Virus record (IMG/VR): IMGVR_UViG_3300045988_177007
Location: 1 to 35,064 of that record
DNA length: 35,064 nucleotides
Origin: a virus
Strand: one strand, 5' to 3'
A model generated the notes under the pieces. That model saw only the letters and a program-made list of their open reading frames with translations. It was not told the origin of the DNA and did no database searches. The position numbers and the translations under genes are program-made. This document shows positions 22,793 through 26,652 of this stretch, piece by piece; within the stretch, counting starts at the first letter, position 1, and the number at the start of each line of letters is the position of its first letter.

Positions 22793-22812
22793 GTGGCTCT
22801 GTTAGACCAACA

Positions 22813-22844
22813 TTGACATATAGGTGATGCCACGGTGGTATAAT
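22813..22844 (+). promoter_or_regulatory. Extended -10 promoter (TGGTATAAT) in front of the transposase gene
   Basis: TGgTATAAT at 22836-22844. A TTGACA hexamer lies at 22813-22818 but 20 bp upstream, a non-canonical spacing. A 6-bp hairpin GCCGTA-AGCTC-TACGGC lies between the -10 and the RBS. Confidence 0.4.
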
Positions 22845-22873
22845 AGCCGTAAGCTCTACGGCATTGGAGTATC

Positions 22874-23929
22874 ATGAACGCCGAAGACCTGGTCATCATC
22901 TTCAAAAAGAACATGGCGAACCTCAGCAAAACCGAGCGCCGCCGCGCAATCGAATCCGTCAGGGACGTGATACGCGCGGCGATGTTCGATGATGCGGCCG
23001 GCTCCACCTATGAAGTCGAATGCTGCCCGCGCTGCGGGTCCATCGCGATCGTGAAGAAGGGCAAATCAAAGAACGGCGAGCAGCGCTACCTTTGCCGGGA
23101 CTGCGGCAGGACCTTCGGTATGGGCAGCGAGCGCATCCTGGGGACGAGCAAGCTCCCGAAGGAGACATGGATGGCCTATGCCGAGTGCTTCGTTCTCATG
23201 CTGCCCCTGCGCGAATGCGCGAGGCGCTGCCATGTCTGTCTCAAGACCGCCTACACCATGCGCCACAGGCTGATCGAGTGCCTCTCGGCCTACTCGCCCT
23301 CGTTTAAGGTCGAGCGGGGTTGCGGCTGCGAGCTCGACGAGACCTATTTCCCCGAGTCGTTCAAGGGCAACCACACGAAGGGGTCGTTCACGATGCCGCG
23401 ACCCTCCCGGCATCGCGGCAAGCAGGTGCACAAGCGCGGCCTGTCGCGCGAGCAGATTTGCGTCATGACCGGCGTGAACGACTCGAACGAGACGTTTTTC
23501 GAGGTCTCGGGGCGGGGCGTCCTGTCGAGGAAACGCGCCATGGATGTGCTGAGAGGCCGCATCATGTCCGGTTCCGTCGTGGCGACGGACAAGGCGTCCG
23601 CCTATGTCGACGTCCTCGCCGAGCTCGAGGTCGCCGCGCACACGGCCTACGATTCCAAGGACCGCTCTGAGGGGACCATCAACCGGATCAACACCGTCCA
23701 TTCGCTCCTTGGTGCCTTCATGGAGCCGTTCAGGGGCGTGTCGACGAAGCACCTCGCTGCCTACCTCGCCTGGTTCAAGTGGTGCCGGACCTTCATGGCG
23801 GCCGATTCCGGCACTGCCGAGCGCGCGGTCGCGCGGCAGCTCGCGAACGGCGTATGCAGGAGCCGTATCCGCGACATGTTCAACGTCCTGCCGCCCTATA
23901 TGGACTACTGGGTCACATCCGCCGCATAG
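22874..23929 (+). CDS. IS1595-family transposase (N-terminal zinc ribbon + DDE domain)
   Basis: 351 aa. CPRCGS...[10 protein letters not shown] zinc ribbon, then a DDE-type core. Inverted repeats could not be delimited by eye. Confidence 0.65.
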
Positions 23930-23975
23930 AGAAGATAAAATGGTTGCACCGTGATATACGAGGAGAGGTACAACC

Positions 23976-24161
23976 ATGCCGTCGAACATACCTGCCACGA
24001 CGATACGTATCGAACCGGAGGTCAAAAAAGAGGCCACGGCCATCCTTGACGAGCTCGGCTTGTCCATGTCCACCGCCGTCAATGCATTCCTCAAGGCGCT
24101 CGTCCGCGAGGGCGGCATGCCGTTCGAGATGAAGGTCACACCGAGGAAGGGCGAGGAGTAA
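23976..24161 (+). CDS. RelB/DinJ-family antitoxin (orphan; no toxin gene follows)
   Basis: 61 aa. TIRIEPEVKKEATAILDELGLSMSTAVNAFLKALVREGGMPFEM matches the DinJ pattern. Only a 12-codon ORF follows the TAACCATG junction. Confidence 0.65.
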   Translation: MPSNIPATTIRIEPEVKKEATAILDELGLSMSTAVNAFLKALVREGGMPFEMKVTPRKGEE

Positions 24162-24178
24162 CCATGACGTCGCAGGTC

Positions 24179-24197
24179 GAGAGAGAGAGAGAGAGAG
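24179..24197. repeat. (GA)9 dinucleotide microsatellite
   Basis: gtcGAGAGAGAGAGAGAGAGAGtag, read directly. Lies 50 bp upstream of the methyltransferase start. Confidence 0.9.
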
Positions 24198-24247
24198 TAG
24201 ATAGGCGCTCCGCGCCTACGGGGACCGCCGCAGGGCGGTGGTCCTAG

Positions 24248-25414
24248 ATGGCTGGTAACTCAAGTCTCGGCGCGGCGAAAGATGCCAAGAACGATGAGTT
24301 TTACACGCAGTACAGTGACATTGAAGCCGAGATGAACGCCTATGTGGAGTTCAATCCCGATGTATTCCGGGGTAAGACGATTCTGCTTCCGTGCGATGAC
24401 CCTGAGTGGTCAAACTTCACGAAGTATTTTGCCGCGAACTTTGAGCGTTTTGGTCTGAAGAAGCTGATTAGCACGTCCTATGCGAAGGGCGCTGGAAATA
24501 AACAGCTGACATTGTTTGAAATGGATTCTCCGCTTTATGACGCTGACAAGCACGACACGCACGGCAAGCTGTTCACGCTGACGCGGGACAGGGACGGCTC
24601 TGGGCAGGTCGACACCGACGACATCGAGTTCTCGGGATACCTCGAAGGTGACGGCGACTTCCGCTCCGCCGAGGTGAAGGCGCTACGCGACGAGGCAGAC
24701 ATCATCATCACGAACCCGCCGTTCTCGCTGTTCCATGAATTCATTTCATGGATATTGGACGGGAACAAGCAATTCGCGATTATCGGAAATATGAATGCTT
24801 TGAAATATCGAGAGGTATTCCCTCGTCTTTTGTCAGGTGATATTTGGCTTGGAACAACGGGGCCGAAAGAGTTCATTGTTTCGGCTACTGTTGATGACCG
24901 AAGTAACTTTGTTGTTCAAGAGGGTAAGCAGACTCTTGCAACATTTGGAAATGTGCGCTGGTATACGAATTTGGACCACGGACGACGTCATACGCCGTTG
25001 TTGTTAGACACCATGGTTCATAATTTGAAGTTCAACAAGAAGCTGCGCAGGAAGCTCGCCGAGAAATATCACACTGACGCATATCCTGAATTTTCTAATT
25101 ACGACGCCTTGGAAGTCCCCTTTGTTGAATGCATTCCTTCCGACTACGAGGGCGTTATGGGTGTCCCTATCTCATTTCTTGAAAAGCATAATCCAGAGCA
25201 GTTTGAGCTGCTTGGAATGTCAGGCGTCCTTGAGTGGGCGGTAGAGGAATGCGATTTCTTCAATCCACCAACCGATGAAATCAAGGCAATTTGCAAAAAG
25301 AGAAGTAAGACCTGGCGTGTTCAGAAAGCATATTTGGATGACGAGGATGGTATGCCGCTGATTCCGGTTTATGACAGGCTGTTTATTCGTCCTAAGAGAG
25401 GAGGCAATGACTGA
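24248..25414 (+). CDS. N6-adenine DNA methyltransferase (gamma-class order: FYTQ ... LLPCDDP ... NPPF)
   Basis: 388 aa. IIITNPPF catalytic motif. EFYTQ near the N-terminus. About 47% GC. Confidence 0.7.
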
Positions 25415-26580
25415 TGAAAACGACTTTACATACCGACTGGACGGTCGGCGATGTCTGCAAGGGCTTCGTGTTCGACCGCAACGAGGGCAAGGGACTGTTC
25501 GGCCTCGATGGGCAGCTCATTATCCAGCCCGAGTATCAGCGCAACTATATCTACGGCGACGGCAAGCGCGACGTGGCCGTTGTCGAGTCCCTGCTGAAGG
25601 GCTATCCCCTCGGCTTGATTTACTTCGTGAAGAACGCCGACGGGATGTACGAGGTTCTGGACGGGCAGCAGCGCATCACGTCATTCGCCCGCTACGTGAA
25701 CAAGTCATGGCCGTTCGCTGTTGAGCTGGACGGTAAGCCCCGTTATTTCGACAGTCTGGATGCCGACCAGCAGAAGCTCATTGTTGACGCGCCCCTTACG
25801 ATTTACGTCTGCGAAGGTGAGCCGTCGGAGATCCAAGCATGGTTCGAAACCATCAACATCGCAGGCGTCCCGCTGGTAGATCAGGAACTGCGCAACGCCG
25901 CGTATCACGGGCCGTTCGTGACGAAGGCTCGTGAGGTATTCTCCAACACGGGCAACGCAAACATGAACCGTTGGCAGACATACGTTTCGGGAGACCCGAA
26001 GCGTCAGGCAATTCTCGAAACCGCGCTTGAGTGGGTCAGCGATGGCAATATCGACGACTATATGGCGCAGCGTCGCTACGACGCCGATATTGACGATCTG
26101 AAAAATCATTTCGATACGGTAGTCGACTGGGTGGATTCCGTATTCGAGTACACGGGAAGCGAGATGTGCGGGCGCGAATGGGGTCGGCTGTACCGCGAGT
26201 ATCACAAGAACGCCTACTCGAAGGACAAGGTAGCCGAACGTGTGAACGCCCTGCTCGATGACTCGCAAGTCGGCGATAAAAAGGGCATCTTCGAGTACGT
26301 ATTGGGCGGCGAGGTAGACTCGCGTCTGCTGAACATCCGAGTGTTCGACAAGAAGACCATCAAGGCTGTGTATCGCAAGCAGACCGCAGAGGCGGAAGCT
26401 CAAGGCGTGTCGAACTGCCCGCTGTGTGCCATCGGGCATGATGCGAACGCGAAGCGCATCTACAAGGAGTCCGAGATGGACGCCGATCATGTAACCGCAT
26501 GGTCAAAGGGCGGCTCTACTACTGAAAGCAACTGCCAAATGCTTTGTAAGACACACAACAAGTCAAAAGGAAACAGATAG
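25414..26580 (+). CDS. DUF262 (ParB-like nuclease) + C-terminal HNH protein; GmrSD / BrxU-like type IV restriction-type enzyme
   Basis: 388 aa. [34 protein letters not shown]...DGQQRITSF (DUF262). C-terminus [28 protein letters not shown] (HNH). Start overlaps the methyltransferase stop (ATGA). Confidence 0.7.
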
Positions 26581-26586
26581 AAACGG

Positions 26587-26615
26587 ATGGGGCGGCTATG
26601 ACAGCCGCCCCATCT
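26587..26615 (+). terminator. Perfect 11-bp stem hairpin after the island operon (GATGGGGCGGC-TATGACA-GCCGCCCCATC)
   Basis: Read directly. Only a weak T tract follows. Confidence 0.4.
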
Positions 26616-26652
26616 CATTATGTCAATTCTGGGCTAACAGAGCCTTTTTTGT

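Follow-up and report, generated by a model that had tools for sequence, protein, structure and literature searches.

Several described systems resemble parts of the locus analyzed here. Classical type II restriction-modification (RM) operons such as PvuII and Esp1396I possess a C-protein controller, and in phasevarions the type III mod, type I hsd or type IIG genes contain tracts of repeats. For the mobile unit as a whole, the closest descriptions are those of tISCpe8 from Clostridium perfringens and MTnSag1 from Streptococcus agalactiae, two transporter insertion sequences (IS) of the IS1595 family bounded by inverted repeats of about 25 bp and by 8-bp direct target repeats (PMC5704250). Furuta, Abe and Kobayashi (2010) described a Neisseria gonorrhoeae RM unit that is bounded by 26-bp inverted repeats, shows an 8-bp duplication and includes a COG3677 transposase-like gene (PMC2853133), and the ParB-like-domain nucleases BrxU and SspE are known to be nucleotide dependent (PMC12707154). 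Here we analyze a 35,064-nt stretch of viral DNA (positions 1 to 35,064 of IMG/VR record IMGVR_UViG_3300045988_177007, referred to below as the window) that harbors a cassette encoding a transposase, a small ribbon-helix-helix (RHH) protein, an N6-adenine DNA methyltransferase (M) and a DUF262-HNH nuclease (R). This cassette is a single autonomous IS1595-family transposon of the transporter IS type (Table 1). All functional statements made about it are based on sequence, synteny and predicted structure.

The initial annotation of the window had placed an accessory island at 22800-26620, that is, 5 and 24 bp from the true ends, and had proposed a search for inverted repeats bounding the IS. The 26-bp terminal inverted repeats found pair at 23 positions (88% complementary), are the top-ranked and longest inverted repeat reported by a repeat finder in the region, and surround all four genes, which are encoded on the same strand. 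All four genes lie within these repeats and the target-site duplication, and the whole 3.85-kb unit moves as one. An empty site, consisting of the left flank, a single TTTTTTGT and the right flank, was predicted beforehand and then sought in IMG/VR. An exact match was located in one contig, IMGVR_UViG_3300045988_176925 (L011), whose flanks are 95.6% and 97.3% identical to those of the window and which joins window position 22797 directly to 26642 (...CGCCGGGGCTTTTTTTGT|TGGCAGG...). Because the exact empty site occurs in a 95-97% identical phage, the cassette represents a recent insertion of an IS1595-family transposon, in agreement with the earlier proposals that it is a horizontally acquired accessory cassette and that it does not belong to the phage core. 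A megablast search of INPHARED phages with the island and the packaging region as queries yielded zero matches.

Mobility of the whole unit, including its passenger genes, is also supported by sequence comparison of copies located at many different flanks. Exact-protein look-ups of the nuclease in ENA and in Logan assemblies recovered the same four genes, with equal spacing, in unrelated settings. One is this phage as found in a different sample; the others are an integrative element encoding Rep, FtsK and integrase, a polysaccharide locus, and a position beside an ABC transporter. As determined via BLAST, the block common to these copies spans from window position 22783/22795 to 26644/26650 with 99.6-99.7% identity. 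Copies of the 3.85-kb unit were identified with at least 14 distinct flanks, at >99.6% identity where the full unit aligned, and most of them present their own 8-bp direct repeat (besides TTTTTTGT, these include AAGACATT, TAACTTAA, ATTTATTT and TTTTCCAA). Element-only contigs of 3,850-3,853 bp were recovered as well. These additional copies are non-independent and stem from short-read metagenome assemblies, in which dinucleotide counts may be wrong. The terminal 8-mers of one copy (L007 5370-9237) differ from each other (TTTCCTTT versus ATTTTTTT). This mismatch suggests that, once inserted, the copy was rearranged with a second one or lost adjacent DNA. Exact-pattern scans for the leader that precedes the methyltransferase gene or for the RHH/leader junction returned nothing in IMG/VR, GTDB species genomes or JGI metagenomes, a pattern scan for the left end gave no match in IMG/VR, and a search of Rfam over 22600-26900 returned nothing at E <= 1. 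No paper describing this transposon family was found in the literature searched.

As in tISCpe8 and MTnSag1, a single IS1595-type DDE transposase and passenger genes are combined here in one IS-like unit of a few kb residing on other mobile elements. The cargo of those elements, however, consists of lincosamide resistance and a mobilisation origin instead of RM genes, and the text consulted (PMC5704250) reports no RHH gene, repeat-containing leader or swappable-cargo series for them. The units of Furuta et al. share with the present element the location of RM genes within imperfect inverted repeats, the 8-bp duplication, the empty site in a relative and, once, the same broad transposase group. 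Each of them is nevertheless an isolated case, in which the transposase is likely inactive and the type IIG gene truncated, and the authors were unable to tell what had moved them (PMC2853133), whereas the element described here has an intact transposase, occupies at least 14 sites and is part of a family in which cargos are exchanged behind a common leader.

Members of this family share a backbone comprising the left end with its promoter-like region, the transposase gene, the 61-aa RHH gene, the leader and the right end, with the cargo junction falling exactly at the start codon that follows the leader. The inverted-repeat ends are also present in six sister variants, and all variants for which both ends were recovered show inverted repeats and an AT-rich 8-bp duplication. 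Cargo identities, established with PADLOC and Pfam, define seven family cargos: two EcoRI-family methyltransferase and DUF262-HNH pairs, an N4/N6 methyltransferase with an XcyI-like endonuclease, two type IIG enzymes and two proteins of unknown function. The unit in the window (variant A) carries the first of the two EcoRI-family pairs, and variant F carries the second, which is only 41% identical to it (PADLOC E-values of 1e-102 and 1e-142). Variant B is 4,161 bp long, has the same ends and a TTTTTCTT target duplication, and encodes an 860-aa type IIG enzyme. It is 93.5% identical to the window over 22795-24138 (left end to RHH codon 54) and diverges thereafter, with identity resuming at the right end. 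Its RHH protein (65 aa, 98% identical over the first 54 residues) was found in 5,455 index blocks (Collinsella, Adlercreutzia); this variant has lost the leader, yet it is by far the most abundant. Variant G carries another type IIG enzyme, and at locus L098 (5304-10207) two type IIG-carrying sister transposons lie head to head, one of them with a truncated transposase gene. The cargo of variant C is an N6_N4 methyltransferase followed by the XcyI-like endonuclease. Variant D presents, at the same start-codon junction, a 768-aa protein (L100 6267-8573; L109 5877-8183) that has no Pfam match at E <= 1 and obtains a chance-level PADLOC hint only, making it a candidate new defence or restriction-modification protein. 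Variant E (2,482 bp; L106 5910-8391 and L107 4399-6880, with perfect 8-bp duplications TAATCAAA and TTTTCTTT) is devoid of a transposase. Its RHH gene lies right behind the left-end promoter and is met by a convergent gene for a 695-aa protein made of seven DUF4379 zinc-finger repeats, so that variant E is apparently a non-autonomous element mobilised in trans.

Table 1. Coordinates of the transposon, its components and the insertion site in the 35,064-nt window.
Feature	Position	Strand	Details
Whole transposon, IS1595 family with passenger genes (transporter IS)	22795..26644	+	3,850 bp
Left terminal inverted repeat, GGCTCTGTTAGACCAACATTGACATA	22795..22820	+	26 nt; kept in all backbone variants
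Right terminal inverted repeat, reverse complement GGCTCTGTTAGCCCAGAATTGACATA	26619..26644	-	From junction alignment and repeat scan
Left-end region, GGTGATGCCACG	22795-22875		
Putative promoter and operator	22823..22844	+	GGTG-ATGC-CACG near-palindrome (22823-22834), then extended -10 TGGTATAAT (22836-22844)
IS1595-family DDE transposase	22874..23929	+	351 aa; N-terminal zinc ribbon
Stem over RHH start	23940..23977	+	Arms 23940-23950 / 23967-23977, enclosing the Shine-Dalgarno and the first two start-codon bases; fold -14.1 kcal/mol, z -2.8
RHH protein	23976..24161	+	61 aa; RelB/DinJ N-terminal DNA-binding domain alone
Leader open reading frame, MTSQVERERERVDRRSAPTGTAAGRWS	24164..24247	+	27 codons; starts 2 nt past RHH stop; own GAGGAG Shine-Dalgarno; TAG abuts M ATG
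(GA)9 tract	24179..24196	+	Length-polymorphic among copies
GTAGATAGG	24197..24205	+	Stops in two of three frames directly past the repeat
Two leader hairpins	24202..24245	+	24202-24218 and 24221-24245; fold -34.4 kcal/mol, z -2.7
EcoRI-family N6-adenine DNA methyltransferase (M)	24248..25414	+	388 aa; TNPPF catalytic motif
DUF262 (ParB/Srx-like, DGQQR) and HNH nuclease (R), predicted restriction endonuclease	25414..26580	+	388 aa
G+C-rich hairpin	26585..26615	+	13 bp; fold -35.9 kcal/mol, z -6.1; 3' of nuclease gene, inside the transposon
Phage intrinsic terminator	22755..22794	+	3' of 163-aa regulator-like gene; stem 22755-22766 / 22780-22791, then T-run; fold -23.2 kcal/mol
Target-site duplication, left copy, TTTTTTGT	22787-22794	+	Final 8 nt of the phage terminator
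Target-site duplication, right copy, TTTTTTGT	26645-26652	+	8 bp

Taken as a whole, the locus is probably best explained as a transposon that carries a restriction-modification module together with an RHH repressor and, possibly, an expression switch. Under this explanation, a single left-end promoter would read the transposase, RHH, leader, M and R genes as one chain, the junctions of which are TAA-CC-ATG, TAG|ATG and TGATG. Given one chain with such stop/start junctions, the methyltransferase would be made before the nuclease, probably in excess. The methyltransferase would mark a specific sequence in host, phage and transposon DNA, while the DUF262-HNH protein would cut unmarked DNA via its HNH active site, with the intact ParB-like DGQQR domain probably engaging DNA in a nucleotide-dependent manner, like its counterparts in BrxU and SspE. 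The RHH protein would repress the operon, the part played by C proteins in other type II systems. In the leader, a number of GA units divisible by three would allow ribosomes to read through both hairpins up to the stop at the cargo ATG, opening a hidden ribosome-binding site (ON), and other lengths would lead to a stop 4 or 8 nt past the repeat (OFF). The phage would gain self-methylation, a weapon against unmethylated competitors and post-segregational stabilisation in lysogens.

The first gene of this chain matches the NCBIfam models NF033547 (8.9e-42, 143 bits with a cut-off of 75, model positions 2-212 of 215) and NF050000 (IS1/IS1595 zinc ribbon; 2.9e-14, 53 bits with a cut-off of 28), as well as Pfam PF12762 (28.7 bits, cut-off 27) and PF03811. 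Pfam and NCBIfam searches likewise upheld the other domain calls made initially (RelB/DinJ, methyltransferase and DUF262-HNH). Ahead of the transposase gene, a TTGACA element (22813-22818) lies 20 nt upstream of the extended -10, and the GGTG-N4-CAC near-palindrome between both elements is kept in 7 backbone variants, from which we infer a promoter/operator function for the left end. The 20-nt spacing weighs against this assignment in that it renders promoter strength uncertain, and a sigma-70 scan considering spacers of 16-18 nt did not report this promoter.

The RHH protein matches the RelB/DinJ model TIGR02384 (3.6e-16, 59.2 bits with a cut-off of 45.65, profile positions 7-53 of 85) and PF04221 (positions 6-51 of 82). 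It thus resembles RelB/DinJ antitoxins in its N-terminal domain, but the toxin-binding C-terminal tail is absent in all backbone variants, no toxin gene is encoded in the window or in any of variants A-G, and the next genes are RM cargo. Across backbone variants that carry seven cargos between them, the RHH gene stays intact, with >83% conservation, and it is a conserved component of the transposon backbone, not toxin-antitoxin debris. The stem that covers its start codon has lineage-specific arms in which complementarity is kept, with double changes in four of five pairs. Since this stem changes in sequence but remains complementary, the data suggest that translation of the RHH gene is coupled to that of the transposase. 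The same inverted repeat was considered as an RHH operator and rejected, because its sequence differs from one lineage to another, whereas the strand with which the protein reads DNA does not.

The RHH gene is always found immediately upstream of the cargo, and cargo relatives that lie outside the transposon (L012, Phoenicibacter and L137) have an unrelated 76-85-aa RHH-like open reading frame of their own abutting M (sub-threshold Pfam matches, E 0.001-0.02). Based on this position, on the RHH-like frames of non-transposon relatives and on the left-end palindrome, the RHH protein most likely acts as an operon repressor in place of a C protein. The arrangement resembles that of C-protein systems and EcoRI in that a methyltransferase, assigned to Pfam EcoRI_methylase, and a nuclease follow the gene of a small DNA-binding protein through stop/start coupling. 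It differs from C-protein systems in that the small protein is an RHH instead of a helix-turn-helix protein, and in the RHH-M-R order that places the methyltransferase first. Two considerations temper the repressor assignment: the role is read from gene position only, and variant E, which has neither a transposase nor a restriction cargo, retains the RHH gene opposite a convergent cargo gene, an arrangement that a backbone or transposition role would fit equally well.

Between the RHH and methyltransferase genes, the initial annotation had seen a 12-codon toxin remnant after TAACCATG, but that count would require one GA unit more than is present, and the actual frame has 27 codons. The second hairpin of this leader contains GGTGG, the only Shine-Dalgarno-like sequence before M, and reaches as far as the T of the leader stop, 2 nt before the ATG. 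A consensus of both hairpins could be derived over five variants, with compensatory changes in three pairs. The same leader precedes other cargos in variants C, D, F and G; in D, F and G the RHH stop has been lost and the RHH protein is fused to the leader, whereas variant C has its leader and methyltransferase joined in a single frame. RHH-leader fusion proteins are on record in all three frames. Among near-identical copies, (GA)n alleles of 7, 8, 9 and 12 units and one G>A-interrupted form were detected, which makes the tract the most variable site of a leader region that is elsewhere nearly invariant (two other variable positions in 12 aligned copies). Two of the reading frames past the repeat stop 4 or 8 nt on, and the third runs to the stop at the cargo ATG; the two-frame stops are kept in five cargo lineages (A, C, D (L109), F and G). 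The main alleles of variants A (9), C (6), F (12) and G (12) are all in the read-through frame, and the only copies in which M is truncated (at codon 215) with the nuclease intact, L130, L132 and L133, all bear the 8-unit, stop-early allele. The (GA)n tract may hence constitute a slipped-strand on/off switch that operates via translational coupling. As in phasevarions, the length of a simple repeat sets the frame at an RM gene and length variants are seen among natural copies. In this case, however, the repeat is part of the transposon backbone and not of the RM gene, being located in a separate leader frame or RHH tail with putative coupling to whatever cargo follows.

The alternative that survives best accepts the transposon and the RM module but views the (GA)n tract as a neutral, slippage-prone linker encoding ERER, and assigns the RHH protein to transposition, through end binding or transposase control. 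We regard it as a real possibility, if one that falls somewhat short of probable, and a number of observations speak for it and against a switch. The alleles are few, phylogenetically linked and taken from short-read assemblies, which can miscount dinucleotide repeats; the three truncated-M copies are probably one lineage and count as one observation; and variant D (L109/L110) has 14 units, an OFF frame, in both of the copies recovered. A strong Shine-Dalgarno (AGAGGAGG) precedes the nuclease gene itself, so coupling is not obligatory, and the most abundant variant, B, thrives without a leader. Persistence of the RHH gene in variant E in the absence of transposase and restriction cargo, and the location of the conserved palindrome beside the left end, where transposase-regulating proteins act, fit a function in transposition. 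On the other hand, two-frame stops conserved together with a third frame ending on the cargo ATG in five cargo lineages, hairpins maintained through compensatory changes, and a pure dinucleotide run that persists in lineages only 85-90% identical elsewhere count against a neutral linker. The OFF frame shared by all broken-M copies, and the RHH-like frames abutting M in non-transposon relatives, also argue against it. A more comprehensive reading, combining all elements of the switch-bearing transposon, can be put forward as a tentative proposal. According to it, the left end, transposase, RHH protein and (GA)n leader would form a plug-in platform that captures RM genes at a fixed ATG, moves these cargos among gut-bacterial chromosomes, integrative elements and phages, and toggles them by slipped-strand frameshifting in a leader frame coupled to cargo translation, with the DUF262-HNH protein perhaps representing a nucleotide-switched, uncharacterised class of methylation-sensitive endonuclease.

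The cargo of the element in the window is a fixed METHYLTRANSFERASE/nuclease pair. The methyltransferase matches Pfam EcoRI_methylase (PF13651, 1.4e-108) and PADLOC MTase_II (PDLC03297, 2.9e-79). The nuclease matches GmrSD_N (PF03235, 2.2e-19) and HNH (PF01844, 3.3e-07) in Pfam and, over its full length, the PADLOC type II restriction endonuclease (REase) model PDLC03418 (3.8e-84, positions 10-371 of 372), whereas other DUF262 defence proteins in PADLOC give partial N-domain matches only. Both genes had been described as overlapping by 4 nt (ATGA), but the actual junction is TGATG, with a 1-nt overlap (stop 25412-25414, start 25414-25416). Catalytic motifs of type II RM enzymes are present in both proteins, TNPPF in M and DH...N...N plus four Cys in R, and residues invariant across the nuclease family comprise QPEYQR, DGQQR, a CxxC...CxxxC zinc site (four Cys) and, in the HNH domain, D358-H359, N373 and N382.

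Relatives of the nuclease were identified by scanning one genome per GTDB species, which yielded at least 585 genomes, at 59-97% amino-acid identity, among them Firmicutes, Bacteroidota, Saccharibacteria, Chloroflexota, Acinetobacter and a methanogenic archaeon. Clustering at 50% identity (E <= 1e-30) divides the family into about 400 groups, nearly all of them of 360-420 aa. Synteny was assessed in 80 loci, 76 of which were informative, the other four having a contig end <250 nt upstream. In 72 of the 80 loci (72 of the 76 informative ones), the gene immediately preceding that of the nuclease, in the same orientation, encodes an EcoRI-family methyltransferase homologue (44-70% identity), and four more loci have one within 2.5 kb (three upstream, one downstream). 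Adjacency is thus the rule for this nuclease family, contrary to the initial view that the pairing is unusual. The pair also resides on Enterococcus, Rhodococcus, Gordonia and Moraxella plasmids, where RefSeq names its members 'adenine-specific methyltransferase EcoRI family protein' and 'DUF262 domain-containing protein', and in the cultured Flavobacterium phage vB_FspS_laban6-1 (gp07/gp08, 4-nt overlap). The nearest relatives of the cargo outside the transposon are at L137 1934-5667, L010 6607-9167 and L012 ~4590-7164; at L137, two tandem EcoRI-family methyltransferases precede the nuclease on an integrative mobilisable element (relaxase, ParA, serine recombinase). Palindrome avoidance was considered as a route to the recognition site and rejected, because the insertion is recent and the sequence too short.

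These features indicate that the cargo most likely works as conventional restriction-modification, and the earlier suggestion of a phage-borne defence or RM module is plausible. In our reading, the nuclease would be a distant, shorter cousin of GmrSD, BrxU and SspE that uses a canonical HNH domain and is restrained by the m6A mark of its partner. It shares with GmrSD, BrxU, SspE and DndI an N-terminal DUF262 ParB/Srx-like domain with DGQQR and a C-terminal His-Me-finger nuclease, but it is about 380 aa long, versus 560-600 aa, has a canonical HNH (PF01844) and a Cys4 zinc site in place of DUF1524, is obligately paired with an m6A methyltransferase, and is only ~15% identical to them over the aligned part. 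R.EcoRI, in turn, is a PD-(D/E)XK enzyme, and not an HNH nuclease with a ParB-like domain. The structure of the nuclease was predicted from an alignment of database hits; a PDB sequence search returned no relative of the nuclease, and noise alone for the methyltransferase. Several points weigh against a conventional assignment. BrxU, a type IV enzyme, and SspE, which senses phosphorothioates, are structural neighbours of the N-domain, so that a non-classical sensing mode is possible for the predicted nuclease. The source names of its relatives ('DUF262', 'HNH endonuclease family', 'McrA', 'GmrSD domain-containing') include no named or characterised REBASE enzyme, and no characterised type II endonuclease of DUF262-HNH type was found in the literature searched.

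The intact DGQQR domain raises the possibility that the nuclease depends on nucleotides, and a Ssp/Dnd-like mode of action can be envisaged in which the DUF262 domain senses the methyl mark on self DNA and nucleotide triphosphate (NTP) hydrolysis switches the nuclease to nick or cut unmarked DNA, with no fixed site. The invariance of the NTPase-type motifs DGQQR and QPEYQR across the family is consistent with such a mechanism, as is the fact that the neighbouring SspE, DndI and BrxU are nucleotide-regulated DUF262 nucleases, two of which partner a DNA-modification system (PMC12707154, PMC13251355). The sequence offers nothing to tell this mechanism from sequence-specific cleavage, but PADLOC groups the nuclease with type II REases and its C-terminal domain is HNH and not DUF1524, and we deem the Ssp/Dnd-like mode unlikely. 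Much less likely still is the type IV reading of the initial annotation, by which the DUF262-HNH protein would be a GmrSD/BrxU-type enzyme directed against modified DNA of rival phages, with M as an independent anti-restriction or self-protection gene. The PF03235 match and the names given to relatives by some sources ('GmrSD restriction endonuclease domain-containing' or 'McrA') would favor it. Of the traits of GmrSD enzymes, however, the protein displays DUF262 but neither DUF1524 (no Pfam match at E <= 0.01) nor solitary action, and it ends in a canonical HNH domain. A stand-alone type IV enzyme would not be expected to be inherited so strictly with a single methyltransferase family, and joined to it by stop/start overlap, as is the case in 72 of 76 informative genomes, on plasmids and in another phage. 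If the nuclease required m6A, moreover, its co-expression with an m6A methyltransferase would make it self-toxic. The type IV reading is hence unlikely on account of the fixed pairing, the full-length PDLC03418 match and the lack of DUF1524. Finally, the proposal that an IS1595 element struck a toxin-antitoxin module and destroyed the toxin, leaving an orphan antitoxin and a short frame at TAACCATG as remnants unrelated to M and R, can draw on the RelB/DinJ match and the missing toxin, but it deserves next to no credence, as the ends of the transposon enclose all four genes, the RHH gene is kept intact, tail-less and toxin-free both in all copies of the element and in its sisters, which bear six other cargos, and the short frame, a conserved leader, runs up to a stop directly adjoining the cargo ATG.

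The phage that received the transposon is complete, circularly assembled and temperate. The first 141 nt of the window (1-141) are identical to the last 141 nt (34924-35064), which points to a circular assembly. The phage genome is thus complete at ~34.9 kb, of which the insertion accounts for 3.86 kb. The genome encodes a recombination directionality factor (RDF, 20090-20515) and an integrase (20763-21869), and no tRNA was found in the window. Insertion occurred within the T-tract of a terminator belonging to the phage, shortly before the genes for HNH, small terminase and large terminase. Between the insertion point and the terminase genes, words of the TGGCAGGTTC / TGGCAATCTC / TGGCGCATTT type recur every ~10 nt (26653-26745). 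This phased TGGCA array is probably the cos/pac recognition array of the phage, which would place the transposon between terminator and packaging site. At 26631-26652, the outer right inverted repeat (GGCTC...GAGCC) and the duplicated T-rich target form a small terminator-like hairpin with a T-run, and the insertion has thus recreated a terminator-like signal at its right edge. The terminator hairpins initially thought to close off the island belong to different units: the left one (22755-22791) is the phage's own terminator, and the right one (26585-26615) is internal to the transposon and has no T-run of its own. The latter marks the end of the cargo, and every sister cargo has its own. A terminator scan missed the phage terminator and reported the right hairpin (minus strand) and the small right-end/T-tract hairpin. 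The low GC content ascribed to the island holds for the element as a whole (0.557 versus 0.671 for the rest of the window), but the dip comes from the cargo alone (M 0.488, R 0.559), the transposase gene being at 0.631. Other GC dips in the phage (0.53-0.61 versus ~0.67; 7501-8500, 12001-12500, 14001-14500, 20001-20500 and 31501-32000) may correspond to other acquired genes or to intergenic control regions.

Taken singly, passenger IS1595 elements, transposon-like RM units, phage-borne RM, DUF262 nucleases and phase-variable RM are already known. According to the literature and databases consulted, what appears to be new is an active and abundant transposon family devoted largely to RM cargo, with a fixed start-codon junction and an RHH-plus-leader platform, the repeat-bearing coupling leader itself, and the recognition of a large 'DUF262' family as the nuclease half of EcoRI-family methyltransferase systems, which was already implied by PADLOC models. 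The mobility of RM systems has been debated for decades mainly on indirect signs, and the element analyzed here provides an intact, active transposon family that carries at least five RM cargos behind a common leader and is very abundant in gut metagenomes, with a sister RHH protein in more than 5,000 index blocks. It offers a concrete vehicle for RM genes and a testable rule of cargo capture, the junction at the start codon. The cargo nuclease family, with ~400 clusters, more than 585 species genomes and 'DUF262' as its sole annotation, constitutes a large set of uncharacterised, probable restriction enzymes with a ParB-like domain and possible new specificities. Should the repeat-bearing leader prove functional, it would amount to phase variation in portable form. 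Landing of the transposon in a viable-looking, complete phage illustrates one route by which phages acquire RM systems, and bears on superinfection exclusion, host range and the design of phage therapy.

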